Shown here: piece after piece, positions 670 through 63,370 of the stretch
Layout: every line of letters starts with the position of its first letter
How positions within the stretch are numbered: the first letter of the stretch is position 1
DNA from: Candidatus Nomurabacteria bacterium
GTDB lineage: Bacteria > Patescibacteriota > Minisyncoccia > Phycocordibacterales > UBA9973
Direction: 5' to 3'
DNA length: 64,000 bases
Assembly: GCA_026396015.1 (NCBI GenBank)
Contig: JAPLXP010000014.1
Location: forward strand, 15,944 to 79,943
Program-made: the position numbers and the translations under genes
Notes under the pieces: model-generated
Database searches by the model: none
What the model was told of the DNA's origin: nothing
Seen by the model: only the letters and a program-made list of their open reading frames with translations

Positions 670-2418
670 TTATAAGCGACTATTTTTAATATGTTGAATC
701 TTTTGGGTTAATATTTGATATTCTTCTATTAAATCTTTCGGTAGTGAATTATCCGATCTATTCATATTGTCTGATACTACGATCAAACGTTCTTTTAATA
801 GCTCCTCCTCAGTATTTAACAATAATTCTACTATATCCCGAGAAAGTGTATCTATCTTGCCACCATACCACATCTCAGCTTCAAATGAAAGAGATTCTAT
901 ATATGGCGTATGGATATTTTCCAATTCCCCCCAATAGCTTTCTCCAAAAACTTCGTCTATTTTTTCTCTAAATACTTCTATCTGTTTTGATATTTCAATA
1001 TTATTCTTTTGCCAATTCAGTATTCCAAACAGTCTTTTTAGTAATACATCTTTTCTAGAATCAACCACGCTCTTTATCACTTTTACTTTATCTTCTTTTA
1101 CTTCAGAGAAAGTTTTATTTACTTTAAGAAAGTCTTGAAAGTCAGAAAAGATTGCTTGCTGCCCGAGTCCAGTATTACTTGCTATCTCCTGCATATAGGC
1201 ATCAAGTTCGATAGAACTTTTGACCATAGCGAGATATGGAAATACAACTTCACGAATTTTTCTGCCCCGGATTCTCAAATCACCAGTCTCATCACAAATA
1301 CGTCGAACATAAAAAGTAATAATATTTACAGAATTTTTAATTATATTTTTCCAAACTTCACTATCCTTTTTTATTATATCTGCAGGGTCCTCACCTTCTG
1401 GGAGTATTGCTACTTTTACTTGCATATCGAATCCCAATGCTATCATCGCCCCACGTCCACATGCACGAATACCAGCACCATCTCCATCAAAAGCAAAAAT
1501 TATATTCTGAGAGAGTCTGCGTAGTAGGCCAAGGTTATTTATCCGAGCATCATTTGTCTCAGTCGCATCTGCTAGTGCTGTACCTGAAGTAGCTACTGTA
1601 TTGGTAAAGCCTGCTTGATGAGACAGGACCAGGTCTAGCTGCCCTTCTACGATGATACTGTATCCACGAGTACGTATTGCAGTCTTGGCACGGTCGATAC
1701 CAAATAATACATTGGATTTGTTGAACAGTGTGGTATCTGGGCTATTGAGATACTTTGCTTCTTCATCATCTGGACGTCCAAATATTCTCCCTGAAAAAGC
1801 AATCACTCTACCACTACTATCAGATATCGGAAACATAATGCGCCCACGAAAACGATCATAAAAACTATTTTCTTTATTTTTTATCAAACCAATATTTTCA
1901 ATTTCAGTCTTTGTAAACCCTTTTTTCAAAAGATAATCCGATACAGAGCGCCATTCATGAGGAGCAAATCCAATTCTAAAATTCTTGATTGATTCATCAG
2001 ATACTCCACGATTCAACAGATACATCCGAGCCTCAGAATTCTTCAAGAATTCCGCTTGGAAATATTTTGTCGCTTCTTCCATACAGTCATACAGGCGTTC
2101 CTTTTCATCTCTGTCTTCCTTGGAATTTCTAAAATCTTCGAGTGGCACACCAGCGCGGAGAGCTAGCATCTTCAATGCACCCTTAAAATCAGTACCTTCA
2201 AAGTGCTCCACAAAAGAAAAAATGTCACCGCGGGCGCCGCAACCAAAACAATAGTAACTATTACGTTCAGGAGAAATATAGAAAGATGGAGTCTTTTCAT
2301 TATGAAAAGGACATCTAGCTTTAAAATTTTTACCTGAACCCTCCACCGTGATGTACGACGATAGTACATCCACGATGTTTAAGCGTTCTTTTATGGTTGG
2401 GACTACAGAAAGTGACAT
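670..2418 (-). CDS. dnaG: DNA primase
   Basis: CHC2 zinc finger CPFHNEKTPSF...CFGCGARGD and TOPRIM EGQLDLVLSHQAG. Canonical position upstream of rpoD. Confidence 0.92.
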   Translation of the reverse strand: MSLSVVPTIKERLNIVDVLSSYITVEGSGKNFKARCPFHNEKTPSFYISPERNSYYCFGCGARGDIFSFVEHFEGTDFKGALKMLALRAGVPLEDFRNSKEDRDEKERLYDCMEEATKYFQAEFLKNSEARMYLLNRGVSDESIKNFRIGFAPHEWRSVSDYLLKKGFTKTEIENIGLIKNKENSFYDRFRGRIMFPISDSSGRVIAFSGRIFGRPDDEEAKYLNSPDTTLFNKSNVLFGIDRAKTAIRTRGYSIIVEGQLDLVLSHQAGFTNTVATSGTALADATETNDARINNLGLLRRLSQNIIFAFDGDGAGIRACGRGAMIALGFDMQVKVAILPEGEDPADIIKKDSEVWKNIIKNSVNIITFYVRRICDETGDLRIRGRKIREVVFPYLAMVKSSIELDAYMQEIASNTGLGQQAIFSDFQDFLKVNKTFSEVKEDKVKVIKSVVDSRKDVLLKRLFGILNWQKNNIEISKQIEVFREKIDEVFGESYWGELENIHTPYIESLSFEAEMWYGGKIDTLSRDIVELLLNTEEELLKERLIVVSDNMNRSDNSLPKDLIEEYQILTQKIQHIKNSRL

Positions 2419-24432: not shown

Positions 24433-24523
24433 TTTTACCCTTTAAAATAAGGATATTTTCATTTTTATATATAAAAATAAGATAAACTCATACAGCCCTT
24501 CCAAACCAAAACCATACACAATA

Positions 24524-24557
24524 AAAATCTGCCTAGGTCCGACCTAGGCAGATTTTT
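24524..24557. repeat. REP-A palindrome copy 1 (aaaatctgcctaggtccgacctaggcagatttt)
   Basis: 14-bp perfect stem with tccga loop, overlapping the RAYT-A stop. Identical copy at 25257..25290. Variants at 24943..24967 and 39466..39490. Confidence 0.85.
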
Positions 24558-25233
24558 AAATACTGTAATTTTCAAAAAAATCAAACAATTCCCTCGTGTG
24601 ATTTACACGAATATGATCTGGTAATATTTGCCTATCTATTATTTTAGAATACTTTCTGCTGTCCACAAAGTAATCAAAGAAACTAGAGTACTTATATTTT
24701 TTCAAATAATCTATTGTTTTATTTTTATCGTTAATACCATTTATTTTCCAATCTTTTTGGATCAATTTTACAGGGTTCAAGTGAACATAAGAAAAAAGAT
24801 AGTTAAAATAATTCTCTTCACCCACATGATTAGATTTAAATTTTCCCTCAAATAAAGAGCCTGTGCGTCCATATTTTTTATTAAAATACATTGAGTACGA
24901 AGTAGAAACTTTACGAATAAATTCAGTTATAGGATTAAACTTTTCGCCTAGGTCCGACCTAGGCGAAATAAGAATAATATGAAAATGATTTGGCATAAGG
25001 ACCCAAGCTAAAACATTTACCAAAGTTTCCCCTCTTTCAAAATCAAATGAATCAATATTATTTCTAACAATTGAATTTCTAAAATTAAATTTCAGCTCTG
25101 AATTTGCAATATAGAGGAGCTTAGTAAAACGTTCATAATCTTCATCATCTAAAAATATCTGACTCTTTCCATTGCCACGATTGTAGATATGATAAAATTC
25201 GTTTTGCACTAAATTTGTTTTTCGCAATGACAT
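24556..25233 (-). CDS. REP-associated tyrosine transposase (RAYT, IS200/IS605 Y1 HUH family), copy A
   Basis: YHIYNRGN N-terminal motif, HUH motif LMPNHFHIIL, catalytic Tyr region YLFSYVHLNP. Bracketed on both sides by identical REP-A palindromes. Confidence 0.8.
   Translation of the reverse strand: MSLRKTNLVQNEFYHIYNRGNGKSQIFLDDEDYERFTKLLYIANSELKFNFRNSIVRNNIDSFDFERGETLVNVLAWVLMPNHFHIILISPRSDLGEKFNPITEFIRKVSTSYSMYFNKKYGRTGSLFEGKFKSNHVGEENYFNYLFSYVHLNPVKLIQKDWKINGINDKNKTIDYLKKYKYSSFFDYFVDSRKYSKIIDRQILPDHIRVNHTRELFDFFENYSI
24943..24967. repeat. REP-A copy embedded in-frame in the RAYT-A coding sequence
   Basis: ttcgcctaggtccgacctaggcgaa encodes SPRSDLGE just after the HUH motif. Confidence 0.8.
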
Positions 25234-25256
25234 ATTTATATTGTATCAAACAAATA

Positions 25257-25290
25257 AAATCTGCCTAGGTCCGACCTAGGCAGATTTTTT
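25257..25290. repeat. REP-A palindrome copy 2
   Basis: Same 33-mer as 24524..24557. It sits between the RAYT-A start and the stop of the 862-aa surface protein gene. Confidence 0.85.
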
Positions 25291-29868: not shown

Positions 29869-30573
29869 TTAAAATTGATTAAGTCTCAAGTCTCCCTGGT
29901 AAAGAAGTCGTACATCTGGAATATTCCATTTGATCATAGCAATACGATCGAGTCCTCCTCCAAAAGCAAAACCTTGGACCTTTTCCGGATCAAGACCTGC
30001 ATTCTTCAGTACAGTCGGATGAATCATGCCACCCCCCATCATCTCTAGCCATTTACCATTGAACTTTGCATGCACTTCTACAGAAGGCTCGGTAAAAGGA
30101 AAGAAACTAGGACGGAATTCTATCTCCACATCAGGACCTAGAACTTTTTTATAGAATTCTACGAGCACACCCTTCATATGAGAAAGATTTATATTCTGAC
30201 CTATCATGAATCCATCAATCTGGTGGAATTGCATCTCATGAGTAGCGTCAGTCGATTCATTGCGGAAAACTTTACCAACAGAAATATACGCGCCCTCTGT
30301 CATATTTTCTTTTGCCATCTTTTCTAGGTTGCGAGCAGTAGTATTTGTAGCATGAGTACGGAGAACTGCATCAGGAGAGTTTTTGATATAAAAAGTATCC
30401 TGCATATCACGAGCAGGGTGATCCTTTGGCACATTTAGTGCGTCGAAGTTGTACCAAGTAGTCTCGAGCTCTGGAGCGAGAGATACCTCGAATCCAAGGC
30501 CAGTAAATAGATCGTAGGCCTGATTCTGTAGGATAGTTAGTGGGTGAAGTGACCCCTTTTCATATTCATTCAT
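29869..30573 (-). CDS. pheS: phenylalanyl-tRNA synthetase alpha subunit (catalytic core only, 234 aa)
   Basis: Class II motifs FRPSFFPFTEPSVEV and GGGMIHP. Lacks the N-terminal coiled coil. Confidence 0.9.
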   Translation of the reverse strand: MNEYEKGSLHPLTILQNQAYDLFTGLGFEVSLAPELETTWYNFDALNVPKDHPARDMQDTFYIKNSPDAVLRTHATNTTARNLEKMAKENMTEGAYISVGKVFRNESTDATHEMQFHQIDGFMIGQNINLSHMKGVLVEFYKKVLGPDVEIEFRPSFFPFTEPSVEVHAKFNGKWLEMMGGGMIHPTVLKNAGLDPEKVQGFAFGGGLDRIAMIKWNIPDVRLLYQGDLRLNQF

Positions 30574-30591: not shown

Positions 30592-31027
30592 TTACCCTAA
30601 TTTTTCCAAAAGCTCTTTCTTCAATTTATACCCATCCCCCCACTTCAGCATACCTAAATAAGAATTCACGCTCTCTTCTTTAAAATTATTCTTTTTCAAA
30701 TTCCTAAACATTCTCTTCTTTGTCGCTGTTCGTAATACTCTATTATTAGCAATAATGTACCCAGCCTAGGAAATCAAGTCCTGATGCTAGAGTTTTAATA
30801 TATACTTTTTCTGGATGTAGTTGTAGTTTTAAATTTTTATTTAAAAAATCTGAAATTACAGGTAAAAAATTCTCAAGATATAATTTATCATCAGAAAGTA
30901 TCACAAAATCATCCGCATATCTCTCGTAGTATTTTACTTTTGATTCAGCGGAATCATGTCGCTTATCTATTCTGCATGAATACGAATCGTATATAAATTT
31001 CTTGTCGAAATATGGGTGTCGTTGTCA
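30592..31027 (-). pseudogene. reverse transcriptase remnant (DGR/retron-type RT motifs 5-7 plus C-terminal tail), N-terminally truncated and frameshifted
   Basis: Minus-strand translation gives ...KVKYYERYADDFVILSDDKLYLENFLPVISDFLNKNLKLQLHPEKVYIKTLASGLDFLGW then a stop. The next frame continues (G)YIIANNRVLRTATKKRMFRNLKKNNFKEESVNSYLGMLKWGDGYKLKKELLEKLG*. The YADD box, FLG(Y) motif 7 and the SYLG..K.G..YKL tail typical of DGR RTs are present. Motifs 1-4 are absent and no frame is open upstream. Confidence 0.65.
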
Positions 31028-31236
31028 AACTTGTTCACATTGAGCTTCAAGCAACCATCGTCATCAAAGTTGACATCAGCAACAAAGAAATTATAAGATA
31101 TCCCATCTATTCCACTGCATATTAAATCATAATAATGCTGTATTTTATTTTGAACCAAGAGTTCAAAGAATATCTTACCTACAAAATATTTTTTATTGGT
31201 TTCTACTATGATCACGCTTTGAGAAGATATCTCCAC
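30967..31236 (-). other. truncated paralogous fragment of the DGR target C-terminus carrying the template repeat (TR); track ORF of 89 aa
   Basis: Encodes ...NFFVADVNFDDDGCLKLNVNKFD, the TR version of the VR peptide FFVADVRFDDDGCLKLYVDGFD. The rest is not homologous to the target. Probably not an independent functional gene. Confidence 0.5.
31017..31092 (-). repeat. DGR template repeat (TR)
   Basis: 67-nt core identical to the VR except at 7 positions, plus 2 flank positions. At every mismatch the TR coding strand has A. TR codons AAC/AAT/AAC/AAG correspond to VR CGC/TAT/GAC/GGG. Confidence 0.8.
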
Positions 31237-31396
31237 TCAAATTCTGGATAATAACAAAAACATACCTTTTATCCTAAGTTTCAGTATAAAGATTAAGTAA
31301 TAGACCGAGGATATCAAAAGAATACGAGTTTAGTATACAAAAATCCCCCAGTACACGCAAAGTGTCTGAGGGATTAAGAAATTAAGGGTCTAAATT

Positions 31397-32077
31397 TTAA
31401 ATTACTGAGTGAACAAGCGCTGTAGCTGGGACAACAACACGAGACTGATTGCTCGCACACCAAACATCGATGTAGTCAAACCCGTCCACATAGAGCTTCA
31501 AGCAACCATCGTCATCAAAGCGGACATCAGCAACAAAGAAACTTTCGCCTTCCTTAAAAAGAAAGAATGTGGCATAGCCATTTGTACGAAGTTTATCTTT
31601 ATTTTTTTCACAGAAGTTTTTGATTTGCGCCTGGGTCATACAGAGTGCTTCTAAATCCTTATTGAAAGAACCGAAAATAGTCCTGTAATCGCCATCCTTG
31701 TGCATCTCAAATACTTTCATTTCGGATTTCTCCGTTTTAGGTTGAGTATTAATTAAATTCCAATCTTTTAAATTGGTACTCAAGTACCCTGTAAACAAGT
31801 CTCCTGCATAATGAAGTCCTGACTCTTTTGTACCTCCGCATTCATCAACAAAAATTTCTTCTTCACAATGCAACTCGGTAAGGTGGGATGTTTTTACAGG
31901 TTCAGTGGACTTTAATCCAAAAATCTTCATCCTATCTTTAAGACTCATTTTGTGAAAACCAATAAGACAATTTATGTAATCAGAGTTTTGTTTTCTGTAC
32001 GCTGACCATAAATTTTTGTCTACTTCTTTTTGTAGGCCTTCAATGTTTGAAGGATCTACGATGAATTTTTGTATCAT
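31397..32077 (-). CDS. DGR target protein (226 aa) with variable repeat near C-terminus
   Basis: C-terminal ...ESFFVADVRFDDDGCLKLYVDGFDY... contains the VR. Otherwise no recognised domain. Confidence 0.6.
   Translation of the reverse strand: MIQKFIVDPSNIEGLQKEVDKNLWSAYRKQNSDYINCLIGFHKMSLKDRMKIFGLKSTEPVKTSHLTELHCEEEIFVDECGGTKESGLHYAGDLFTGYLSTNLKDWNLINTQPKTEKSEMKVFEMHKDGDYRTIFGSFNKDLEALCMTQAQIKNFCEKNKDKLRTNGYATFFLFKEGESFFVADVRFDDDGCLKLYVDGFDYIDVWCASNQSRVVVPATALVHSVI
31475..31541 (-). repeat. DGR variable repeat (VR)
   Basis: See TR. The VR sits ~450 nt upstream of the TR on the + axis, inside the target gene's 3' region. Confidence 0.8.
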
Positions 32078-32227
32078 CTTTTTGTTTTTAAATAACTAGA
32101 TCGTTAGTTCACTAGTTCAGGAGTATTATATCACAAAATATGCCTGCAAGTCAAGCTTAAAAAGGCTATATTTTAAAGGGTTTTGTGTGGATATTGCAGG
32201 ATTTAATAGATTATGATACAGTATACG

Positions 32228-32392
32228 TACTAGTGGCTTCGGCCTCCGAGAAAGCTCCCGCAAGGGAGCTTTCGATTTTATACTTGCAGTCTATATAACA
32301 GTATGGTATTATAAAAATATTGAGAGGTTGCCTCTCTTGCTCGCAAGAGCCGATAGCCCCGCAAGGGGCTATTATAATTTATAAAGCTTACT
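32228..32392 (+). ncRNA. candidate structured small RNA: cluster of tetraloop-capped hairpins (1 UUCG, 3 GCAA, 1 UUGC)
   Basis: Hairpins ggcTTCGgcc (32235-44), gagaaagctcccGCAAgggagctttc (32248-74), gagaggTTGCcctctc (32322-36), gctcGCAAgagc (32339-50) and atagccccGCAAggggctat (32353-72). Possible promoter ttgcag-17-tacagt at ~32195-32223. GNRA loops appear only in + orientation. No overlapping protein gene except a spurious 62-aa track ORF. Confidence 0.35.
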
Positions 32393-32764
32393 AAAGTATT
32401 CTTGTATTTTAGAATATTCTTCGTCTGAAAGAATATATTTCCTCTCTGTAAGTCTCCTCTTGTCAAAACTACGTATCTGATACACTAGTGCTGTATGCAA
32501 AATACCGTCATCTGTTTTTATAATACAAGAATATTTTCTATTTTTAACTTTTGAGGTAAGTGGTATACCAATAAAACTTTCACTACCTTCGGCATTTATC
32601 ACAAGAACTGGTCTTGTATAATCATCCCCTTTACCATACACCTCACTACCCACATTCATCCCAATACTACACCACCAAATTTCTTTTTCTTGTGGATGAT
32701 TAAATGTTTCATTTTGATCAATCTTTATTTTCTTTTTATTCCACTTATCAAAATCTTTATCCAT
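32372..32764 (-). CDS. MazF/PemK/EndoA-family endoribonuclease toxin, no adjacent antitoxin gene
   Basis: VGSEVYGKGDDYTRPVLVINAEG...IGIPLTSK and ALVYQIRSFDKRRLTERKYILSDEEY align with B. subtilis EndoA (VGSEQGGVRPVLVIQND...; LLEQIRTIDKQRLTDK...). It has a ~35-aa N-terminal extension. Confidence 0.75.
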   Translation of the reverse strand: MDKDFDKWNKKKIKIDQNETFNHPQEKEIWWCSIGMNVGSEVYGKGDDYTRPVLVINAEGSESFIGIPLTSKVKNRKYSCIIKTDDGILHTALVYQIRSFDKRRLTERKYILSDEEYSKIQEYFSKLYKL

Positions 32765-32796
32765 ATTTAAATTATATCACTACTAACCCCTGAGTT

Positions 32797-35778
32797 CTAT
32801 GCTGATTTATATATTCTAGCCCTCGCGCAGTTTGGACATACGGAATCCCTGCCGTAGGATTTGAAATTACATGGACGGTTTATCCACACACCAGTTTTTA
32901 AATCTCTATCATACTCAGTAATATCACGGACCAATAGATCAATCTCCTCATTTGTGATACTCGTCTTGTAAATACCATTCTTGTCTCCCTTTTTGGCCTC
33001 TAGGAATTCCAATTGAGATTCTGATACTCGATCATTGTTATTCGCACCGTGAATAAGGTACGAGTACATTGCGAGTTGTCGCATATAGCTACTCATACTC
33101 TCGTTTTCGCCCCGTTTTTCAATTTCTGATTTTGTTTTTACGCTACCTGTCTTGAAATCCGTCACTCGAAAAGTATTTTTTTCTATCTCCTCTGTCAGGT
33201 CCACCTTTCCATAGAAAAGTAAGCTTGGAAAGCGAGAATCTCGATACGATAGCGGTCGCTCTGTCATATAATTCTTTATATTGGGCAGTCTTTCCTTTAC
33301 CCAGACAGATACTATTCCGACAGCTTCTTTTTGTAATCTTTTAACCATTGATTCTTCATAAATATTTTGCTTGTGTATCTGATCGAGGATTATATCTTCA
33401 AGCAAATCTCCGTTCTTCTTCAATACTTGCTCGATCGTACCGTGAACCACATTACCAAAGACTAGACTCTCAGAAACTACGTCCGGCAAGCGCAATAGAT
33501 TCCTAAAATACCACTTCCATGGGCATTCAAAAAAGTTGTTCAGCATCGTCACCGATACCTTTGTCTTTTGGTATTCCTCAGCGACCATATCGGTCAGATC
33601 TTTCGTTGAAAAATCTACCTCTGCATGAGGTACAGCAGTGACATATGATTTTGGGTCCCTGCTCAGAATTTGTTCTTCTACTTGATTGAAATTTTTCTTT
33701 ATAAATAGGTCTTCTGGCAGTTCCGCGATGATATGTGACAATTCCTGATCGCCACCTGTATATGAGTATCTAGAATATGAAAAAGTACAGAATCGCTTTG
33801 CTCGAGTCAGTGCTACATAGAGCTGCTTTTTCACCACTTCAGCATCTTTTTCTTCTATTTTATTTTGTACATCTTCTGGGAGTGTGAATGCCTGCTTTTT
33901 GCCATGCATCAATGTCTTTTCATCCATATGAGCCACCCAGACGAAATCAAATTCCAATCCTTTTGAGGAGTGAAGTGTCAGAACCTTTACACCTTTGTCG
34001 CCATAGAATACGTCTAGTGGTAGATCCTCGCCATAAGATTTGAGTCGGTCGATAAAGTCGATAAATCTTTTCAGTGTGAATTTCTGATGCTCCCGCTCGC
34101 TCTTTTCCCTCTCCCCTTGCGCTAGGTGCAGTACTGTACGCACCACCTCCACGCGACGAATCAGATCATCGTGATTCTCTGCTGTATCTAGTAGTAGACT
34201 CTCGCCCACATATTGGACTAATTCGTACACATCACGAGTATTGGATTCCTCAATATAGGATTTCAATTTATCACCCCAGGAATTCACTGGATCAATACCT
34301 GTAAATAAATCTTTTTTGCCGCCACCGAGATCCTCTACGGATAGCTTGTAAGTATTCACACTCTGCAAAAACTTATGTGCCGAGAGTGGTGGTATCTTAT
34401 TTATCGGATCAAACAAAGATTCAGAGATAGAGATATTGTCATATGGATTTAATACTATTCGAAGTGCCCGAATCAGAGTATCTGCCTCGGGTACACCAAA
34501 GAGTGTCAGTATGCCTGATGAAGCCACAGGTATACCGCGATCTCGGAGTATCTGCACAGCGTTTTTGACTTGATAATTTTTTGGCACAAGAATCGTGCAT
34601 TCATCAGGACTCACACCATCTGCCACCTTCGCCTCTATCTCCATAGCAGCAGCAATGATCTCGTCACGAGGATATTCGCATTCATAGAGCTGTAGTTTAT
34701 GCATCTCTCCATGATTACTCTTGAGTTTTTCCAGTGTCATCGAACTTCGCAGTAGTGTGTCTGCACTATCGAGAATCGCCTGTGTAGAACGATAATTCTC
34801 CACCAATGTGATCAACTTTGCTTTACCAAAAAGCGTCTTAAAACTCTCAAAATATTCGATAGACGCACCCCCAAAACCATAGATGAGCTGTCGGTCATCA
34901 CCCACAACGAATATATTTGGCAATTCTGTATCGTGCCAGATAGCACGAAGTATCGCATTCTGCGTAGCACTACTATCCTGATGCTCGTCTACGAGTGCAT
35001 ACAGATATCGCTCGCGAATAGTCGCCTGTGCATCATCGGAATTTACCAGAATATGCCATGCGTATTTGAGCACATCATCATAATCACAGAGACCTCGCTC
35101 CTCTTTTAATTTCTCGTATTCACGATAGAAAATTACGACTTCTTTTGTCCTCTCGAGTCCATCGATTTTCTTTTCTACTTCTTTTTTAAGTTGTCCTTTG
35201 CTCTCGCCACGACTAGAAATACTATCCGGGTCATTCTTGATCCGATCAATCTCGAAATTTATAGATGCCAAAAACTCTTCAGGCTTTATATTTTCTCTTT
35301 TCAATAATGAAATCAGACTTTTGATATCTCGGAAAAACATGCCTGAATTACCTCGTGGACGAATGTAGACCCAGCTACCATTCTCTAGAATCTCATCCAC
35401 GAGGGCGATATTGCTCGTCTCATCTAGTATCACCGGTGGCTTTTGCATGTCGAGAACCTGGTGGAATTCCTCGAGTATATTCATAGCAAAACTATGAAAA
35501 GTAGAAATCTTGATCTGTGTAGCTGGAGGGCCAATATATTTCAATAAACGCTTACGCATCTCTTGCACCCCAGAATTAGTAAAAGTTAGACATAAAATTT
35601 CGTTTGGTTGTGTTTGGTTTGAACTATTTAAAATATAAGCAATACGCAGTGACAATACCTGAGTTTTTCCAGTACCGGGACCCGCCACTACCATCACTGG
35701 ACCGTCGATAGTATCTACGGCCAATTTTTGCTCTTTATTTAGCTTTTTATATGCAGAATTATATAAGTCTTGATTCAT
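32797..35778 (-). CDS. UvrD/AddA-like SF1 helicase fused to C-terminal RecB-family PD-(D/E)xK nuclease with Cas4/AddB-like Fe-S cysteines
   Basis: N-terminal LNKEQKLAVDT...VVAGPGTGKTQVL Walker A and UvrD motifs. C-terminal ...FECPWKWYF ... DFKTG...K nuclease core. Terminal RPC-x10-C-x2-C cysteine cluster. No AddB/RecC partner is adjacent. Confidence 0.8.
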   Translation of the reverse strand: MNQDLYNSAYKKLNKEQKLAVDTIDGPVMVVAGPGTGKTQVLSLRIAYILNSSNQTQPNEILCLTFTNSGVQEMRKRLLKYIGPPATQIKISTFHSFAMNILEEFHQVLDMQKPPVILDETSNIALVDEILENGSWVYIRPRGNSGMFFRDIKSLISLLKRENIKPEEFLASINFEIDRIKNDPDSISSRGESKGQLKKEVEKKIDGLERTKEVVIFYREYEKLKEERGLCDYDDVLKYAWHILVNSDDAQATIRERYLYALVDEHQDSSATQNAILRAIWHDTELPNIFVVGDDRQLIYGFGGASIEYFESFKTLFGKAKLITLVENYRSTQAILDSADTLLRSSMTLEKLKSNHGEMHKLQLYECEYPRDEIIAAAMEIEAKVADGVSPDECTILVPKNYQVKNAVQILRDRGIPVASSGILTLFGVPEADTLIRALRIVLNPYDNISISESLFDPINKIPPLSAHKFLQSVNTYKLSVEDLGGGKKDLFTGIDPVNSWGDKLKSYIEESNTRDVYELVQYVGESLLLDTAENHDDLIRRVEVVRTVLHLAQGEREKSEREHQKFTLKRFIDFIDRLKSYGEDLPLDVFYGDKGVKVLTLHSSKGLEFDFVWVAHMDEKTLMHGKKQAFTLPEDVQNKIEEKDAEVVKKQLYVALTRAKRFCTFSYSRYSYTGGDQELSHIIAELPEDLFIKKNFNQVEEQILSRDPKSYVTAVPHAEVDFSTKDLTDMVAEEYQKTKVSVTMLNNFFECPWKWYFRNLLRLPDVVSESLVFGNVVHGTIEQVLKKNGDLLEDIILDQIHKQNIYEESMVKRLQKEAVGIVSVWVKERLPNIKNYMTERPLSYRDSRFPSLLFYGKVDLTEEIEKNTFRVTDFKTGSVKTKSEIEKRGENESMSSYMRQLAMYSYLIHGANNNDRVSESQLEFLEAKKGDKNGIYKTSITNEEIDLLVRDITEYDRDLKTGVWINRPCNFKSYGRDSVCPNCARARIYKSA

Positions 35779-38875: not shown

Positions 38876-39579
38876 TAAATTACAATCAATTCTTTTGGTG
38901 ACTTTGTAAGGATAGTGCTACCCTTTTTGGTAACCAGGATAGTATCCTCTATACGAATACCCAATTTATTTTTTATATATACACCTGGCTCGACTGTGAT
39001 GACCATATTATCGTCGAGAATTGGTTTTGTGATTTTAAAATAAATTCGTGGATTTTCATGAATGAGTTTCCCTACTCCATGACCTGTCATATGGATAAAA
39101 TATTTAGCATATCTACCGAGTGCCTTTCTGCATACTTCGTCTACTGTGAACGCATACACACCACTTTTAACCTCACCAATTCCCGCTAACTCACTCTGTA
39201 AAACTAGATCATAAATTTTCTTTTGTTCAATAGTTGGAACGCCGACAAATATCGTGCGAGTCATATCTGAGCAATAGCCATTTACCTTTACCCCAAGATC
39301 AATAATCACAAAACCAGATAATTTTTTATCGGTCGGCTGTGGGTGAATATCATTGCCTGCATTACGGCCTGATGTGACGATAGGTGGAAAGCTCGGTCTT
39401 AAACCTCTTTTCTTTATCTCAAATAAAATAAAATCTCGCAATTCCACTTCGGTAATTTTATGAGTCTTGCCTAGGTCGGACCTAGGCAAGAATTTTAAGA
39501 TATTTTTGAAAATAGCATCAGTCTCGCGGCAAGCCTTCTTGATATTTTCAATCTCTTCTTTTGTCTTTATTTGTGCCAT
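38875..39579 (-). CDS. M24-family metallopeptidase (Xaa-Pro/methionine aminopeptidase catalytic domain only) carrying an in-frame REP-A insertion
   Basis: IVTSGRNAGNDIHP...IIDLGVKVNGYCSDMTRT...HMTGHGVGKLIHENP...VEPGVYI pita-bread motifs. The N-terminal segment KFLPRSDLGKTHK is encoded by the REP-A palindrome. Confidence 0.8.
   Translation of the reverse strand: MAQIKTKEEIENIKKACRETDAIFKNILKFLPRSDLGKTHKITEVELRDFILFEIKKRGLRPSFPPIVTSGRNAGNDIHPQPTDKKLSGFVIIDLGVKVNGYCSDMTRTIFVGVPTIEQKKIYDLVLQSELAGIGEVKSGVYAFTVDEVCRKALGRYAKYFIHMTGHGVGKLIHENPRIYFKITKPILDDNMVITVEPGVYIKNKLGIRIEDTILVTKKGSTILTKSPKELIVI
39466..39490. repeat. REP-A copy (inverted orientation) inside the M24 peptidase CDS
   Basis: cttgcctaggtcggacctaggcaag. 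Same palindrome family as the RAYT-A flanks. In-frame, encoding LPRSDLGK. Confidence 0.8.
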
Positions 39580-54795: not shown

Positions 54796-54905
54796 TTCTG
54801 GCGACAACCTACTTTTCCCACGAATGAGTATCATCGGCGCAGATGGGCTTAACTTCCGAGTTCGGAATGTTATCGGGTGTGACTCCATTGCCAAATCACC
54901 AGAAC
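54796..54905 (-). rRNA. rrf: 5S ribosomal RNA
   Basis: Reverse complement GTTCTGGTGATTTGGCAATGGAGTCACACCCGATAACATTCCGAACTCGGAAGTTAAGCCCATCTGCGCCGATGATACTCATTCGTGGGAAAAGTAGGTTGTCGCCAGAAC. It contains the CCGAAC..GAAGTTAAGC and GCGCCGATG 5S hallmarks, and the terminal helix I pairs. Confidence 0.88.
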
Positions 54906-55039
54906 AAAATTTTCAACTAACGTATTGTATCAACAAATTTTGTCGAAAACAATAAACGATGTGTCATGATATGTGAAAACTGAATGCTATTTGATAGAGT
55001 GTCTCCCCGTAGGGAGATATACAAGATTGTTTGTGATTT

Positions 55040-58005
<2,966 letters not shown>

Positions 58006-58305
58006 GGAAATTTAAAAACCACATTTTCTTCCCTCTCTCGATAAGAGGAAAGCGATACACAATTTTGCTTTGTTGACGGGAACCGCTTCCCAGCAAAAGG
58101 TGTATCCTTTTATTTCTATCTTGCACTCTATTTCCATCCCGTATAAAAGACCCTAAAAAATTTTAGGATAACAGTGGGATGGAATAGCATTCAGTTTTCA
58201 AATATCATGATGTTTTTAAACAAAAAAAATAGCCTTTCGGCGGTACAAGCGAAACCATAAGAGGTTTAACTTCTCCGCAGATTTTGATTACTTTTCTTTA
58301 ATAAC

Positions 58306-58345
58306 ATCGTAGGAGCATTCTATACTAACGGAAAAAGAAAGTCAA
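58306..58345 (-). promoter_or_regulatory. candidate rRNA operon promoter (TTGACT-17-TAGAAT) ~300 nt upstream of the mature 23S 5' end
   Basis: Minus strand gcTTGACTttctttttccgttagtaTAGAATgctcc. The leader contains a 12-bp hairpin at 58126-58190. Confidence 0.45.
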
Positions 58346-58398
58346 GCATTTAGATTAGGTTCTATTAATTAATGGCTAGGGGCTAGTAAATATAAAGA

Positions 58399-58426
58399 AA
58401 AAGAGCCTGAAAGGCTCTTTTTCTTT
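58399..58426 (-). terminator. intrinsic terminator downstream of the 58486..59172 gene
   Basis: aaaaagagcctgaaaggctctttttc. Confidence 0.75.
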
Positions 58427-58485
58427 ACTAGAAACTAATTATTAAAAACTAGTCACTAATCATATGACGAAGCTTTATTCTGTGC

Positions 58486-59172
58486 TTATTTTGAGATATC
58501 TTTTGAAACATTCTCGATAGCGCGAGCAGCTGCATCGCGACCACCAATACCAAATGCTAGACCAAATGCCAATGCCAATGCTGCGATCAATCCTGTGAAT
58601 AGGATCTGCATAAATGCAGAGGCTATTCCTAGCTCTGAAAATGCAACGATAAATGCGAATATCCAGATTGCATAGTTTGCAATAGAACCTAGCATATTTG
58701 CTGAAGTTACATTTGCAGCACGTGCAGACGCAGAAACAATCTTTTTCATTGTTTGGGCGATAACTGTAGCGATGATCAATACTAGTGCAGCGATAGCTAC
58801 CTTTGGTAGATAGTAAACTACTGTCTCACGTAGAAAATCATTTACTTGTGTAAGACCCATAATCTCCAATGATGCCATCATGAAAGCCACAATAATAAAC
58901 CACTTGAAAAGTCCACCTATAAATCCACCTACATCAAGACGAAGACCTGCTTTTTGAAATGCTTCATTTGCACCAGCACTCTCGAATAGTTTGTCGATTT
59001 TAAGAGTTGCAAACAATTGAACAACTGCTTTACAAATAATAGAACCTACAACCCAACCAATAACAAATAAGATTACTGCACCCAATAGACTTGGAACAAA
59101 AGACATAAAACCTACCCATAGACTCTGAAGTGAACCTGTAAATACCTCACCCCATGTTTGTAAAAAAATCAT
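58486..59172 (-). CDS. membrane protein with repeated conserved TM-helix units (mechanosensitive-channel-like small protein)
   Basis: Six hydrophobic helices with repeated (V/I)IGWVVG / GLAFGIGG patterns. Confidence 0.55.
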   Translation of the reverse strand: MIFLQTWGEVFTGSLQSLWVGFMSFVPSLLGAVILFVIGWVVGSIICKAVVQLFATLKIDKLFESAGANEAFQKAGLRLDVGGFIGGLFKWFIIVAFMMASLEIMGLTQVNDFLRETVVYYLPKVAIAALVLIIATVIAQTMKKIVSASARAANVTSANMLGSIANYAIWIFAFIVAFSELGIASAFMQILFTGLIAALALAFGLAFGIGGRDAAARAIENVSKDISK

Positions 59173-59273
59173 AATAGAAATATATTTTACTAATTAATAA
59201 TTAAACGTACTTTGATAAAGCTTCGACCTCCTCAAGTACTATTTATATTATAACAAAAAATAGCCCATAAAGG

Positions 59274-59945
59274 CTATTTTTTTAGTAAATATGTGGATAA
59301 CTGCCCATTGTCTATTAAGGTCTCGTGTGGGAAGTCTACAATATCACATACTAGCTTGTCGTACATATTGAGTCTGTATTGGAATTCTTCAGTCTCGAAC
59401 ACTACATAGTCGAGTTCTTTGCCTATCTCTGCCTCTAGGCCCTTCACCACTTGTTGTAATACATTCTTTTTGAGCTTGTCCCCCACTAGCATCACATCTA
59501 CGCGAGAATCCTTGTTATTGGTAATAAACACACCGGACACGAGCATGAGCTTGATTTTGCCAGCCTGCCTGAATCGAGCTGCTAGATCCTCCTGAAGGAG
59601 TAGATTGGGGTCTACTAGTAGATCCCGAATGGCATTCACATATTGAAATGAAGTATCTAGGTACCAAGCAGGTATTTTCTTCTTTGATCCACGTGAACCC
59701 TCCACTGTGACAAATTTTTGTTTTACAAAGCCCATAGCTGCCAATGCATTGATTTCTTTTCTGACATTTGGCTTTGTGACACGACTACGAGATACTACAT
59801 CTTCTACATCAAAAGATGTATCTGGGTTTAATAAAAATAATCTCATTATCTTGACTCTGGCCTGACCGCCAAACAGCTTTGCTAGTGTTTCCATGGGTAT
59901 TAGTATACTCCATCTCCCCCAGCCTTTCAACCCCTGGAAAAACAT
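59274..59945 (-). CDS. hypothetical protein with N-terminal winged-HTH; C-terminal region weakly nucleotidyltransferase-like
   Basis: ArsR-like wHTH: KIMRLFLLNPDTSFDVEDVVSRSRVTKPNVRKEINALAAMGFV. C-terminal MLVSGVFITNNKDSRVDVMLVGD is only loosely reminiscent of the minimal NTase G[SG]...D.D motif. Confidence 0.4.
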   Translation of the reverse strand: MFFQGLKGWGRWSILIPMETLAKLFGGQARVKIMRLFLLNPDTSFDVEDVVSRSRVTKPNVRKEINALAAMGFVKQKFVTVEGSRGSKKKIPAWYLDTSFQYVNAIRDLLVDPNLLLQEDLAARFRQAGKIKLMLVSGVFITNNKDSRVDVMLVGDKLKKNVLQQVVKGLEAEIGKELDYVVFETEEFQYRLNMYDKLVCDIVDFPHETLIDNGQLSTYLLKK

Positions 59946-59989
59946 AAAAAAAGACCCTTTATGGGGGTCTTTTAAATAAATAGAATATA

Positions 59990-60589
59990 TTAGATACTAA
60001 TCTCATCGAGATTTATAAATTTCTCTGTCTGTAGATAATTTAAAATTCTGGGCTTCATTTTTGCAATCTGTTGATCGCACAATTTCAATACAGAAATTGA
60101 ATCATACAAAGGAAGGTAAAGACCTTTCTCATTAGTAATTCCATGATAACGGACTGTTTGATCCCACTCATAATCACTTGCTTCACCTTTGTCTTCTCCC
60201 GTTAAGATAAATCCTGGTTTCAATATTTTTCCTGAAATAGTCTCACGATATGGATTTCTTGTTAGAAAAACATCACGGTCCCAATGTGGAGTCCATGCCA
60301 ATATTTCTCCAGCGATAAGGTCAAACGTAAATGTGTCTGAGAATATAAATGTCTGATCACGTAATACCTGCCATGCAAGTATTTTATCCCATCCTTTCTC
60401 TGGACGAAGTAATTGTTTACTTTTATTTTTTTCCTCCACCTGTTCTAAAAGTTTTGAAAGTTGAGGATACAAACTTTCGTCTTTAGTGTCTAGGTACTGG
60501 TCATATAGAGCCCAGAAATCCTGCAATGCTTGTGTATTCATAATATAAAATGTTTTTTTCATATTACTTATAAAAAATAAATATGTCAA
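59990..60589 (-). CDS. hypothetical protein
   Basis: 199-aa ORF. No assignable domain. Confidence 0.4.
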   Translation of the reverse strand: MTYLFFISNMKKTFYIMNTQALQDFWALYDQYLDTKDESLYPQLSKLLEQVEEKNKSKQLLRPEKGWDKILAWQVLRDQTFIFSDTFTFDLIAGEILAWTPHWDRDVFLTRNPYRETISGKILKPGFILTGEDKGEASDYEWDQTVRYHGITNEKGLYLPLYDSISVLKLCDQQIAKMKPRILNYLQTEKFINLDEISI

Positions 60590-60593
60590 TAAA

Positions 60594-60622
60594 AAAACAC
60601 CCCCGTACGGGGTGTTTTTTTG
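60594..60622 (-). terminator. intrinsic terminator after rplL
   Basis: aaaaaaacacccccgtacggggtgtttttttg. Confidence 0.8.
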
Positions 60623-60630
60623 TAGGTTGA

Positions 60631-60993
60631 TTACTTAAGTGTAACTTTACCTCCTGCGTCTTCAATTTGCTTTTTTAGAGCTTCTGCTTCTGCCTTCTTC
60701 ATACCGTCCTTTAGAACAGATGGAGCTGCATCTACTAAATCCTTTGCCTCTTTAAGACCTAGGGCTAGAGCTTCTTTAACTACCTTCATAACACCGATTT
60801 TCTGCTCACCAGCTGATGTAAGTTCAACTGTAAATGAGTCTTTAACTTCACCAGCTTCTGCTGCTGCAGCTGGAGCTGCTGATACTGCTTGCGCTGATAC
60901 TCCGAATTTTTCTTCAATAGCCTTTACAAGGTCATTGAGTTCTAGAACTGAAGCGTTTTCAAGTTCTGTAAGAAATGAATCAAATTTTGCCAT
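60631..60993 (-). CDS. rplL: 50S ribosomal protein L7/L12
   Basis: [32 protein letters not shown]...[24 protein letters not shown]. Confidence 0.92.
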
Positions 60994-61000
60994 ATTTTTG

Positions 61001-61097
61001 TTAGGTTCTAGTAGCTAGGTTATAGCTTCTAGAACAATTAATTAATTGAATAAACTTTTTTGTATTTTACTAGCAACTAGAAACTAGTCACTAGAAA
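61001..61097. promoter_or_regulatory. CTAG-rich palindromic intergenic element (family C copy) between rplJ and rplL
   Basis: ttaggttctagtagctagg ... actagaaactagtcactagaaact. The 3' arm overlaps the rplJ stop codon. Confidence 0.55.
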
Positions 61098-61583
61098 CTA
61101 CTTCGTGCCTGCGACTGCAGATACTGCAATAGCGAGACGTTGCATTGGAGACTTGAGCAAGTATGCGATCTGTGATAGCAATACTTCTCGAGATGGGATT
61201 GTAGCAACCTTTTCCATCTCAGCCTTATCCATATACTTTCCTTCAAATACACCACCGACAATAGAGATATTCTCTTTATGTGTCTTTGCAAATGCGTAAA
61301 CTTCACGAGCCGGAGCAAGTAAATCTGTACCATATGCCATAGCGATCTGACCAGATAGTTCTGGCATGTCACCTGTCACTCCTTTTACAGCGAGGGCTCT
61401 CTTTAGGAGAGTCTTCTTTGCAACGTAGTAACCGATGCCATCTTTTTGTAAACTGCGGCGAAGTTCGTTTACGTCCTTTACCTTCAATTTATCAAATTTT
61501 ACAAAAACTACAGATTGAGCATCTACTAGAGCTTTGTCTAGTGTAACTGCAATCTCTACTTTCTTTTCCTTTTTTAATGCCAT
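61098..61583 (-). CDS. rplJ: 50S ribosomal protein L10
   Basis: MALKKEKKVEIAVTLDKALVDAQSVVFVKFDKLKVKDVNELRRSL matches the L10 N-terminal domain. Confidence 0.92.
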   Translation of the reverse strand: MALKKEKKVEIAVTLDKALVDAQSVVFVKFDKLKVKDVNELRRSLQKDGIGYYVAKKTLLKRALAVKGVTGDMPELSGQIAMAYGTDLLAPAREVYAFAKTHKENISIVGGVFEGKYMDKAEMEKVATIPSREVLLSQIAYLLKSPMQRLAIAVSAVAGTK

Positions 61584-61585
61584 AA

Positions 61586-61625
61586 TGTTAGGTTCTAGGA
61601 GCTAGGTTCTAGTGACTAGTAAATA
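61586..61625. promoter_or_regulatory. CTAG-rich palindromic element (family C copy) immediately upstream of the rplJ start
   Basis: ttaggttctaggagctaggttctagtgactag. Confidence 0.55.
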
Positions 61626-61800
61626 CTAATCCAAAACCAAATTCTTCAAACCTGTTTCTAAAATAAAAAATCGACCTGTTAAGGCCGTCTAATCACAATC
61701 CACAAGTGGATTTTAGTGACCTCGGAAGGGCTTATGATTGCCTTCTGTCTACGGCTTACGAGAGATAATGTAACATGAATTCCGTAGAAATGCAATACTA
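61626..61800 (-). promoter_or_regulatory. candidate L10 (rplJ) autoregulatory leader
   Basis: Long untranslated region upstream of rplJ with a 12-bp perfect hairpin (atccacttgtggat) and a GC-rich segment cgtaagccgtagacagaaggcaatcataagccc. Assigned by position and analogy only. Confidence 0.25.
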
Positions 61801-61942
61801 TTTATATGAATCCATCACAGTTAGAATCACCAGACCCAATCCGATCATAAGAGAGAAACCTATTATCACTTTGAATGAATGCTTGGTGAACATATATTTA
61901 TTATATCATGCGTTTTTATACATATGTCGATACACAACAAAA

Positions 61943-61978
61943 AAGCACCTTGGGCTAGAGCCCGCGGTGCTTTTTGTT
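61943..61978. terminator. hairpin H1: aaaaagcaccttgggctagagcccgcggtgcttttt
   Basis: Near-identical to hairpin H2 at 62549..62585 except that the central CTAG tetranucleotide is inverted (ctag vs tcta context). The two bracket the toxin-antitoxin cassette. Confidence 0.6.
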
Positions 61979-62234
61979 ACTTATATAAATCATGATCCCC
62001 TATAGCTAAAAGAATTGCTTCTTCTTTGTCACCCCACATAAAAACAATACGAATTTTATAATTTACATAAAAACTAAAATTTTCTTTAAATCTTCCGTGA
62101 AGTTTATGAACTTTTAATATAATATGGTTATCTTTATTTCTAAATAATTCTATCTTTTCTAAAACCTCTTGCTGTAAATCTTTTTCTAATTTTGAAAAAG
62201 ATTTAACAAAAGTTGGCTTATATGATATTTCCAT
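61977..62234 (-). CDS. RelE/ParE-family toxin
   Basis: MEISYKPTFVKSFSKLEKDLQQEVLEKIELF...HGRFKENFSFYVNYKIRIVFMWGDKEEAILLAIGDHDLYK, the typical RelE/ParE fold signature. Confidence 0.75.
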   Translation of the reverse strand: MEISYKPTFVKSFSKLEKDLQQEVLEKIELFRNKDNHIILKVHKLHGRFKENFSFYVNYKIRIVFMWGDKEEAILLAIGDHDLYK

Positions 62235-62240
62235 AAAGTA

Positions 62241-62450
62241 TTATTCAAAATTTTTAGCCAATTCTCTCAAATCTCCACGCAGTGTTGGTTCTTTCATAGC
62301 ATTTAAAACAACCTGAACCGCTTCTTCTTCTGCAATATGCGCAATGGCACGACGAACAACATCAGCTTTATTGGAGCCATACCCACTTTCTATTAAACCT
62401 TTTATTGATTCCTCTAGCTTAGCAGAAATCGGTACAGATATTGTAGTCAT
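62241..62450 (-). CDS. RHH-type antitoxin (ParD/CopG-like)
   Basis: MTTISVPISAKLEESIKGLIESGYGSNKADVVRRAIAHI is a ribbon-helix-helix N-terminus. The gene lies immediately upstream of the toxin, with a 7-nt gap. Confidence 0.65.
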   Translation of the reverse strand: MTTISVPISAKLEESIKGLIESGYGSNKADVVRRAIAHIAEEEAVQVVLNAMKEPTLRGDLRELAKNFE

Positions 62451-62548
62451 ATATTTATATTGTATGATATTATAATATGATATTATCATACATTATCCCC
62501 CTCAAAAAGGCAACATTTTAGAAATATACCCAATAAATACAACAAAAA

Positions 62549-62585
62549 AGCACCGTGGGCTCTAGCCCGCGGTGCTTTTTTGTAT
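62549..62585. terminator. hairpin H2: aaaaaagcaccgtgggctctagcccgcggtgctttttt
   Basis: Twin of H1. Confidence 0.6.
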
Positions 62586-62608
62586 TTATACCTTTTAAAT
62601 AAAGTATA

Positions 62609-63130
62609 CTATTCTACGATGATAGTAGCAGGATTCTGTTGTGATCCACAATCTACTAGGTATTCTGTAGGAGATTTTAACGCTTCCAGCTTTGCTATCT
62701 CATAATCGTATGCGGCTACTTTGTATATACTGCCACCGATTTTGATATCCTGCTCTTTATCTGTACGATTGTCTAGCATGATTGTAGTACCATTTGAGTA
62801 CACAGAACTACGAGGGAAAGCCTGACATTTAGAATCAAATTGGATTCTGTAGCCACCACTATATGCTTTTAAAGCATCAGCATAAGACATCTTTGGAGTA
62901 GCTACTGGCTTCTTTGTATGAGTCACCTTTTTAGGAGTGACTACTGGATTTGCAATACTCTCGTTCACCACTGGAGTCTCTACTACTGCCACTTCCCCGT
63001 TCTTGTGACCCAAAATACGGAAACCAAATATAACAGCCAATACTAATACAACTGAACCTGCACCTATAAGGTAATTTTTATATTCTTTCATAATAGAAAC
63101 AATACTATCATAAATTCCCAAAATGTCCAT
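62609..63130 (-). CDS. hypothetical membrane-anchored protein
   Basis: TM helix at residues ~20-40, then a probable extracytoplasmic domain. Confidence 0.4.
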   Translation of the reverse strand: MDILGIYDSIVSIMKEYKNYLIGAGSVVLVLAVIFGFRILGHKNGEVAVVETPVVNESIANPVVTPKKVTHTKKPVATPKMSYADALKAYSGGYRIQFDSKCQAFPRSSVYSNGTTIMLDNRTDKEQDIKIGGSIYKVAAYDYEIAKLEALKSPTEYLVDCGSQQNPATIIVE

Positions 63131-63199
63131 ATATACTCGCCCTTACAGCGGTCCAACCCCTGTAAAAGGAGATGCATCGCAAATAAAAAATATTGCCTT

Positions 63200-63320
63200 T
63201 AATTTTTAAAAATGGTATAGTATTTGTGTGCCTGTGGGCGAAAGCCCCTTATCGGCTACGGATTCTCCTAAGCTGAAAGCAGGTACATAAAAAAAACCAA
63301 ACATTTGTTTGGTCTTTTTT
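63200..63320 (+). ncRNA. candidate small RNA with its own promoter and intrinsic terminator
   Basis: TTGCCT-17-TATAGT promoter at ~63203-63231. ~90-nt transcript GTGTGCCTGTGGGCGAAAGCCCC...AGCTGAAAGCAGG with a GAAA-capped hairpin. It ends in aaccaaacatttgtttggt plus T-run at 63292-63320. No + strand ORF. Confidence 0.3.
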
Positions 63321-63370
63321 ATTTTAATCTTCATCTATACCTTTATCATACATCTTTTTGTACGGCATTG

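Follow-up and report, generated by a model that had tools for sequence, protein, structure and literature searches.

In the type I toxin-antitoxin systems txpA/RatA and bsrG/SR4 of Bacillus subtilis and par RNA I/RNA II of Enterococcus pAD1, the antitoxin RNA is encoded convergently and overlaps the 3' end of the toxin gene. RNA antitoxins also control the RNase-type toxins of SymE/SymR and RalR/RalA, through 5'-end or trans pairing. Type III systems (ToxIN, CptIN, and TenpIN) combine an endoribonuclease toxin with a structured RNA antitoxin and have no protein antitoxin, and ToxN resembles the Kid/MazF fold. Antitoxins of the ToxI type are tandem direct repeats placed upstream of the toxin gene on its own strand, with a terminator in between, and are processed by the toxin. 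In Campylobacter jejuni 81-176, plasmid pVir expresses CJpv3 beside pVir0047, a 77-nucleotide (nt) small RNA (sRNA) from the minus strand (31119->31043) that was detected by Northern blotting and whose transcription start site (TSS) has a step height of 16164, the highest among the pVir table entries viewed, versus 28 for the toxin TSS (Dugar et al. 2013, PMC3656092). An antisense sRNA of pVir, CjrA, is presented as an experimentally validated type I antitoxin by papers citing Shen et al. 2016 (Mol Microbiol 101:909). Here, we analyze a 64,000-nt stretch of a Candidatus Nomurabacteria bacterium (contig JAPLXP010000014.1, positions 15,944 to 79,943, hereafter the window), in which five hairpins are clustered at the 3' end of a MazF/PemK-family toxin gene.

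The cluster very probably consists of genuine toxin-linked sRNA genes. Our preferred reading, to which we assign a rough probability of 0.6, is that these RNAs are conserved partners of a toxin subfamily lacking MazE and most likely serve as its antitoxin in a type I-like mode. The features of the locus are as follows.

32194..32222, plus strand: promoter of sRNA-A, read from the sequence (-35 TTGCAG at 32194-32199, 17-nt spacer, TG at 32214-32215, -10 TACAGT at 32217-32222)
32229..32282, plus strand: sRNA-A, about 52 nt, with predicted ends (mini-hairpin 32235-32244, linker UCCGAG 32245-32250, terminator hairpin 32250-32273, U-tract GAUUUUAU)
32235-32244, plus strand: hairpin 1, GGC-UUCG-GCC, in sRNA-A
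32250-32273, plus strand: hairpin 2, GAAAGCUCCC-GCAA-GGGAGCUUUC, in sRNA-A
32284..32312, plus strand: promoter of sRNA-B (-35 TTGCAG at 32284-32289, 17-nt spacer, TG at 32304-32305, -10 TATTAT at 32307-32312)
32319..32385, plus strand: sRNA-B, about 65 nt, with a predicted 3' end (hairpins B1, B2, and B3 and U-rich tail UAUAAUUUAUA)
32322-32336, plus strand: hairpin 3 (B1), GAGAGG-UUG-CCUCUC, a 6-bp stem with a UUG triloop
32339-32350, plus strand: hairpin 4 (B2), GCUC-GCAA-GAGC, in sRNA-B
32353-32372, plus strand: hairpin 5 (B3), AUAGCCCC-GCAA-GGGGCUAU, in sRNA-B
32764..32372, minus strand: MazF/PemK-family gene, 130 amino acids (Pfam PF02452, E = 3.7e-12)
32771..32779, minus strand: putative MazF promoter by sequence reading, an extended -10 TGaTATAAT ending 6 nt before the ATG

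The window has a low GC content (38%), its nearest relative is the Candidatus Paceibacterota metagenome-assembled genome (MAG) GCA_018061145, and all the genes around the hairpin cluster lie on the minus strand. The first-pass annotation, made from the sequence alone, had proposed a single sRNA candidate with five hairpins behind a promoter ttgcag-17-tacagt. This promoter is in place, with an extended -10 TG, and all five inverted repeats are present, although the third has a UUG triloop and not the UUGC tetraloop first described. The candidate does correspond to sRNA genes, but since a second promoter (TTGCAG-17-TATTAT) sits between hairpins 2 and 3, there are two of them, independent and of different structural classes. 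Both point toward the 3' end of MazF. The sRNA-B promoter ends 9 nt before B1, and B3, rightly described as adjoining the MazF stop codon, overlaps it by one base (32372).

The covariance model R1, built from 38 relatives of module A (sRNA-A), had a single match in the window, at 32229-32290 on the plus strand (65.6 bits; E = 3e-23). Model R2, for module B (sRNA-B), also had a single match, at 32317-32389 on the same strand (96.5 bits; E = 6e-25). Neither model detected the other module, and the comparative data show that the two modules are separate, separately conserved units. The tandem A+B layout recurs in loci L011, L013, L014, and L020, and tandem copies of module A are found in L027, L028, L036, and L183, suggesting either dosage or turnover of RNA classes. 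A pair of sRNA genes, arranged in tandem or located on the same contig, was observed in the last four loci and in L098, and a 6.7-kb metagenome contig (L156) carries three MazF-sRNA cassettes; the cassette thus appears to multiply within genomes.

The stems are conserved outside this genome, as the first-pass annotation had proposed should be checked, and both modules show compensatory changes. In module A, 98.2% of the alignment cells were paired among 58 distinct relatives and 9 of the 11 base pairs showed two-sided changes; none of 500 shuffles equaled these values, and slid controls reached at most 69% of paired cells. This alignment was fitted to model R1, and an independent RNAalifold prediction on a MAFFT alignment agreed with it. 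The 17 sequences of module B gave 95.7% of paired cells and two-sided changes in 10 of 18 pairs (0/500 shuffles equal; slid controls, at most 61%).

Three independent signals, from loops, G·U pairs, and promoters, indicate that the strand under selection as RNA is the one opposite MazF, i.e., the plus strand of the window. Among 111 distinct module A RNAs, the loops of the hairpin that follows the mini-hairpin comprised 63 GNRA and 9 UNCG when read on the RNA strand, versus 2 on the MazF strand. Internal G·U pairs outnumbered A·C pairs on the RNA strand of module A (41 versus 16), and module B had 12 G·U cells and no true A·C, its non-pairs all being alignment-register artifacts. The loop of B2 on the plus strand was GNAA in every relative inspected by eye. 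In a protein-selected set of 77 loci, the promoter pattern was found on the downstream side of MazF in 48 loci on the antisense strand and in 4 on the sense strand, the corresponding numbers in upstream control regions being 5 and 2. Relatives of module A carry a TTGAC(A/T)-17-TAnnnT promoter at a fixed distance of about 12 nt before GGCUUCGGCC. Those of module B, inspected by eye, have a -35 (TTGCAx or TTGACx) and a TATAAT-like -10 located 8-10 nt upstream of B1. Read on the antisense strand, the final hairpin is succeeded by a U-tract in relatives. Promoter position, the orientation of the GNRA/UNCG loops, and the G·U versus A·C counts therefore agree with the plus-strand transcript claimed at first pass.

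The most constant part of sRNA-A is its 5' side. The 16-mer GGCUUCGGCC(U/C)CCGAG varied at one position across 13 loci that were picked through the protein alone and whose toxins are 35-84% identical (median, 56%), while the terminator stem changed freely. At some loci, the sRNA lies inside the toxin open reading frame (ORF). In six of the loci (L033, L034, L036, L041, L074, and L146), the MazF frame runs through the whole sRNA gene and ends in ...GCCAAUGUGUAA, so that coding sequence lies opposite the entire sRNA and the conserved 16-mer of the RNA is translated as well. A peptide-coding role of the sRNAs themselves was rejected, as they contain no AUG and neither a start codon nor a frame is conserved across relatives.

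The association between toxin and RNA extends well beyond the window. We scanned one genome per GTDB species, which identified 333 genomes encoding a relative of the toxin, and fetched 80 loci; at all of these, hairpins were found directly past the MazF stop codon. R1 matched about 36 of the fetched loci (E<0.01) and R2 matched 15. All significant matches lay opposite the MazF strand at the 3' end of the gene, apart from a handful of additional copies at other positions of that opposite strand and faint echoes, limited to the stem, that the same hairpin gave on the MazF strand. R2 matched only the clade whose toxins are at least 53% identical to that of the window, including two loci outside its seed, and R1 matched more distant clades and, in addition, four loci of clade B in which both modules are present, as they are in the window. 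sRNA-B is a class specific to its own toxin clade (at least 53% identity), and sRNA-A is a class of more distant clades, kept here as a second copy. At the 37 loci that neither model matched, inspection by eye revealed the same plan, an antisense promoter and a 4-bp 5' hairpin followed by one or two more hairpins, and the pairs of this 5' hairpin covary (UGGC/GCCA, UGCC/GGCA, UGGG/CCCA, and UCCC/GGGA). The only clear exception was L084, in which the toxin's own 3' end is replaced; a convergent RNA stood beside every intact gene among the loci examined. The downstream neighbors vary and include an intact diversity-generating retroelement (DGR), a HEPN/nucleotidyltransferase pair, a serine recombinase, and others. 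Although these surroundings are unrelated, the RNA is an obligate companion of this toxin family.

The same association was recovered by a search blind to the protein. The pattern TTGAC-N17-19-TANNNT-N10-14-GGCTTCGGCC gave at least 124 matches in metagenome contigs, and a convergent MazF-family ORF was found in 74 of the 124 matches listed, its stop codon mostly 22-42 nt past the motif. About 16 more of the matches listed were family-like (several with truncated or frameshifted MazF, a few with unrelated ORFs or contig run-off), and the remaining ones listed were obvious GC-rich chance matches. The invariance of the 16-mer in this set arises partly by construction and was not counted. At several loci, the sRNA persists although the adjacent MazF gene has decayed, and no locus was seen with an intact gene but no convergent RNA, which is the pattern expected of an antitoxin.

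The toxin family has an N-terminal extension of about 25 amino acids with an invariant W8 and K12. Its nearest solved structure is MazF/EndoA of B. subtilis (PDB 4MDX; E = 1.5e-9), and the segments RPVLVI and PLTS, which hold the catalytic Arg and Thr of MazF enzymes, are kept. Nearly all of the 297 homologs come from Patescibacteria metagenomes, and tblastn also found the family on plasmids of Campylobacter, Helicobacter, and Nitratiruptor and in Campylobacter CJIE4 prophages; the toxin itself matched nothing in NCBIfam or PADLOC. The gap between MazF and the upstream helicase gene is 32 nt. No upstream ORF was conserved among 78 loci, 24 of which had none at all while the others had unrelated ones, and the largest cluster of upstream ORFs had three members, explained by synteny. 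The toxin is an orphan, as initially described, with no conserved protein partner gene in these loci, and a protein antitoxin gene was ruled out because the upstream ORFs are absent or unrelated. The position of TGaTATAAT, 6 nt before the ATG, would give a leaderless toxin mRNA. No clear Shine-Dalgarno sequence precedes the genes for MazF, the DGR target, or PheS.

Searches against known RNAs placed neither sRNA in a described family. A scan of the window at Rfam gathering thresholds returned only 23S, 5S, and tRNA; at E<=10, Rfam 15 gave two chance matches in 31900-32900, both away from the element, and at E<=1 nothing matched at the RNA positions of 18 related loci. No family matches the element in the window or in related loci, and this includes the pemK RNA motif, whose name is tied to PemK-family genes but whose covariance model has no match here. 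The novelty proposed at first pass thus holds for the RNA classes, which are absent from Rfam, but the toxin/convergent-sRNA pairing is not wholly unprecedented, given pVir0047/CJpv3. Mimicry of rRNA or tRNA was discarded, as only chance-level 9-11-mers are common to the sRNAs and the 23S gene of the window. An 11-nt complementarity between sRNA-B (B3 arm and loop, 32353-32365) and 23S rRNA around position 379 is near chance and probably meaningless. The motifs ACA, UACAU, and UCCUU do not occur in the sRNAs. A likeness of GAGCCGAUAGCCCC-GCAA-GGGGCUAU to domain V of group II introns was also set aside, since the 3' strand for the lower stem is absent and no Rfam intron matches. In one Patescibacteria MAG (L070), a type III hammerhead ribozyme match lies about 250 nt upstream of the MazF-sRNA cassette (1204-1258, plus strand; 46.9 bits, just below the gathering score of 48.5; E = 3.7e-7).

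Toxin and RNA occur together in hundreds of bacteria, most of them uncultured, so the RNAs probably fill the place of the absent antitoxin, and we consider it likely that they neutralize the toxin. We favor a type I-like mode because the universal convergent, stop-abutting geometry makes the sRNAs complements of a read-through mRNA and because the C. jejuni relative goes by the label antisense/type I. That they act by antisense pairing and not by binding the protein is a more tentative proposal, to which we give slightly less than even odds. In the proposed mechanism, transcripts of the toxin gene, which has no conserved terminator of its own, could in part be stopped past sRNA-B in the window by B1 and its U-rich tail, and a read-through toxin mRNA would contain, toward its 3' end, a segment exactly complementary to the sRNAs. 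Abundant and very stable, the sRNAs would form a duplex with this 3' end, and the duplex, combined with convergent transcription from a much stronger promoter, would keep the toxin mRNA low.

Several observations weigh against this interpretation. Both the sRNAs and the mRNA segment complementary to them are folded into stems with tetraloop caps, and this should make antisense pairing slow. The 16-mer is near-invariant although cis-antisense action does not need it, which hints at protein recognition. The sRNAs showed no preferential pairing with the toxin translation start, the duplex energies of cognate and non-cognate combinations being alike (p = 0.38), and trans-antisense action on the start region was accordingly rejected. 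The 37 variant loci were judged by eye and not by model. Lastly, the type I system cjpT/cjrA is only probably the same as pVir0047/CJpv3.

Part of these observations would be explained if the subfamily had swapped MazE for hyper-stable sRNAs that inhibit the toxin protein directly and sequence-specifically (e.g., through the UUCG mini-hairpin and UCCGAG), a type III-like arrangement that we consider unlikely, though it survives best among the alternatives. The same sRNAs might then bind the MazF-fold dimer as a pseudo-substrate or inhibitor, perhaps via the N-terminal extension, and convergence would only ensure co-inheritance. In line with this, the 5' hairpin and linker stay near-invariant although toxin identity falls as low as 35% and the terminator stem is free to drift, the RNA class changes with the toxin clade, and the invariant W8/K12 extension is lacking in canonical MazF. 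The hyper-stable GNRA/UUCG caps suit a protein ligand better than a kissing antisense RNA, and no trans pairing of the RNAs with the toxin 5' end was seen. However, no ToxIN-type tandem repeat array was found upstream on the toxin strand, the RNA genes lying downstream on the opposite strand, and the stop-abutting convergence at every locus would be unexplained if complementarity were irrelevant. The C. jejuni system, too, is classed as antisense/type I. Were direct inhibition true, this would be a MazF-based type III-like or hybrid type I/III system with several co-evolving RNA classes, in a subfamily that spans Patescibacteria (candidate phyla radiation [CPR]), Rickettsiales, and Campylobacterota plasmids and prophages. 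CPR bacteria mostly lack CRISPR. In this case, the system could be a major addiction or abortive-infection module of these bacteria.

Less probable still is that the sRNAs are partners of the protein without being antitoxins, serving as a substrate, a cofactor, or a regulator of other genes, in which case the protein would be an RNA-processing enzyme and not a toxin. Linkage by itself shows partnership and not neutralization, and the RNA looks long-lived, unlike classic labile antitoxins. Nevertheless, the protein keeps MazF catalytic-type residues and the fold signature, the family occurs on plasmids and prophages like addiction modules, and the sRNA is retained beside decayed MazF genes, with no intact gene seen without its convergent RNA. 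A validated RNA antitoxin (CjrA) is also reported on pVir by the citing papers mentioned above.

It is very unlikely that the hairpins form a terminator or stabilizer stack in the 3' untranslated region of the minus-strand MazF mRNA, or an attenuator of the DGR target, without any RNA gene. Hairpins do form on both strands: the 186-nt region folds at -64.9 kcal/mol on the plus strand (z = -5.1; 0/200 dinucleotide shuffles equal) and at -59.8 kcal/mol on the minus strand (z = -4.2 versus dinucleotide shuffles). A consensus scan of 32050-32850 called four terminator-like sites, versus 0.3 expected from shuffles, and B1 with the AAUAUUUUUA after it reaches a terminator score when read on the minus strand. 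However, the U-tract after B1 is not kept in relatives, loop identity, G·U pairs, and promoters mark the opposite strand, and each module has its own conserved promoter. The plus-strand calls, at hairpin 2 (32250-32273) and hairpin 5 (32352-32373), are the 3' ends of the sRNAs and not terminators of the flanking genes. The C. jejuni counterpart is a discrete, abundant 77-nt transcript from the antisense strand, and the DGR that an attenuator would serve is missing from nearly all the other loci bearing the element. Ordinary terminators in the window are of another style, A-tract/stem/T-tract palindromes, and no other GC-rich tetraloop hairpins without flanking A/T tracts were found elsewhere in its 64 kb. 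A DNA-level element (an attC-like or recombination site, a mobile-element end, or a REP-like repeat) is scarcely credible, for although the cassette occurs in many genomic contexts and a serine recombinase adjoins it in one of them, each module is single-copy in the window, the GNRA/UUCG loops and G·U wobble are confined to one strand, promoters and U-tract terminators are conserved, and no recombinase is consistently adjacent.

The genes that flank the toxin and its RNAs in the window are the following.

35778..32797, minus strand: UvrD/PD-(D/E)XK helicase gene
32077..31397, minus strand: DGR target gene, followed by the template repeat, a truncated reverse transcriptase gene, and pheS/pheT

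The first-pass annotation had noted that the element lies near the start of the DGR target gene. The two are indeed adjacent, but this is lineage-specific and incidental, being found only in the window and in the loci L001 and L002. A connection with the DGR was rejected, as the element travels with MazF and not with the DGR. The DGR of the window (30746-32077, minus strand) is decayed: its variable repeat (31472-31541) and template repeat (31021-31090) are 90% identical, with adenine-specific differences, but the reverse transcriptase remnant begins at the YADD motif and there is no avd gene. The 98%-related MAG loci L001 and L002 have an intact target-bAvd-reverse transcriptase-pheS arrangement (4761-7259 in L001), and the window matches only the last ~330 nt of their reverse transcriptase gene. 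The promoter of the DGR target (TTGACT-18-TATAAT, 32154..32125, minus strand) is near-consensus and divergent from that of sRNA-A. PheS (29869-30573, minus strand) has 234 amino acids, the same length as in L001 and L002, and comprises the catalytic core only (Pfam tRNA-synt_2d, residues 3-232), with no N-terminal extension.

Elsewhere in the window, a palindrome (A)nCTGCCTAGGTCCGACCTAGGCAG(T)n is present in four near-identical copies (24522-24558, 24942-24968, 25256-25288, and 39465-39491), some of them intergenic and some apparently inside ORFs; in the copy at 39465, the loop is inverted to GTCGGAC. It may be a family of REP-like dispersed hairpins or bidirectional terminators. The minus strand carries neighboring 23S and 5S rRNA genes (54796-58005). 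No 16S rRNA gene was found in the 6 kb upstream (58006-64000), which hold protein ORFs instead, and the rRNA operon therefore appears unlinked.

MazF toxins often occur as orphans, which has lacked an explanation. Here, one large MazF subfamily (333 species-level genomes, mainly of uncultured Patescibacteria) pairs, at all but one of the fetched loci, with a convergent structured sRNA gene and not with MazE, and its sRNAs form at least two covarying structural classes absent from Rfam. This very wide distribution in CPR bacteria was previously unreported. If the RNAs are antitoxins, as we favor, the best-known type II toxin fold would come under RNA-antitoxin control as well, many annotations of "solo toxins" would be explained, and CPR bacteria would possess an abundant class of formerly unannotated sRNA genes. 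The system is directly testable, since cultured relatives exist on plasmids of Campylobacter, Helicobacter, and Nitratiruptor. Altogether, the testable parts of the first-pass interpretation are supported.

Compared with known systems, the locus shares features with each of them. As in txpA/RatA, bsrG/SR4, and par, the toxin and sRNA genes of the window are convergent and their 3' ends overlap or abut. A further point of likeness is that transcription of the RNA starts from a far stronger promoter than that of the toxin. However, their toxins are small hydrophobic membrane peptides, whereas that of the window is a 130-amino-acid soluble RNase of the MazF fold. SymE/SymR and RalR/RalA pair at the 5' end or in trans, whereas the window RNAs overlap convergently at the 3' end. 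Type III systems and the window have in common an endoribonuclease-type toxin, a structured RNA, and no protein antitoxin, but none of the ToxI-type antitoxin traits listed above is seen here, and the toxin belongs to PemK/MazF in Pfam and those of type III to ToxN/AbiQ. The toxin fold and catalytic-type residues (PF02452, 4MDX) are those of the type II systems MazEF/PemIK, but in these MazE or PemI is encoded upstream, while the family described here lacks it in any context and has the additional N-terminal extension.

The closest likeness is to pVir. CJJ81176_pVir0047 (30634-31038, plus strand) aligns with the family profile in hhalign (probability, 99.7%; E = 1e-26), with 36% identity over 122 columns that include the N-terminal W-N-K extension. 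CJpv3 starts about 80 nt past the stop codon of pVir0047 (31038), ends 5 nt past it, and folds into three hairpins behind a promoter with an extended -10 TGnTATAAT. Plasmid homologs in Nitratiruptor and Helicobacter suis have the same toxin/convergent-RNA layout. Both pVir0047/CJpv3 and the window lack MazE, have a toxin of the same subfamily, and encode a convergent 50-80-nt sRNA with its own promoter at or over the toxin stop codon. A convergent sRNA beside a toxin of this family thus has a precedent in pVir0047 and the Northern-verified CJpv3. The RNAs are alike only in layout and hairpin count: there is no likeness in sequence or model, and R1 and R2 gave no match at the CJpv3 position with filters off. 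In contrast to CJpv3, the RNAs of the window have a high GC content and carry GNRA and UUCG loops as caps. The window locus, moreover, is chromosomal, in an uncultured CPR bacterium (Paceibacteria), while pVir is a plasmid, and unlike pVir it has two tandem sRNA genes of different classes. The element is best viewed as a variant of a barely studied RNA-antitoxin/MazF system, to which it adds two new RNA classes.

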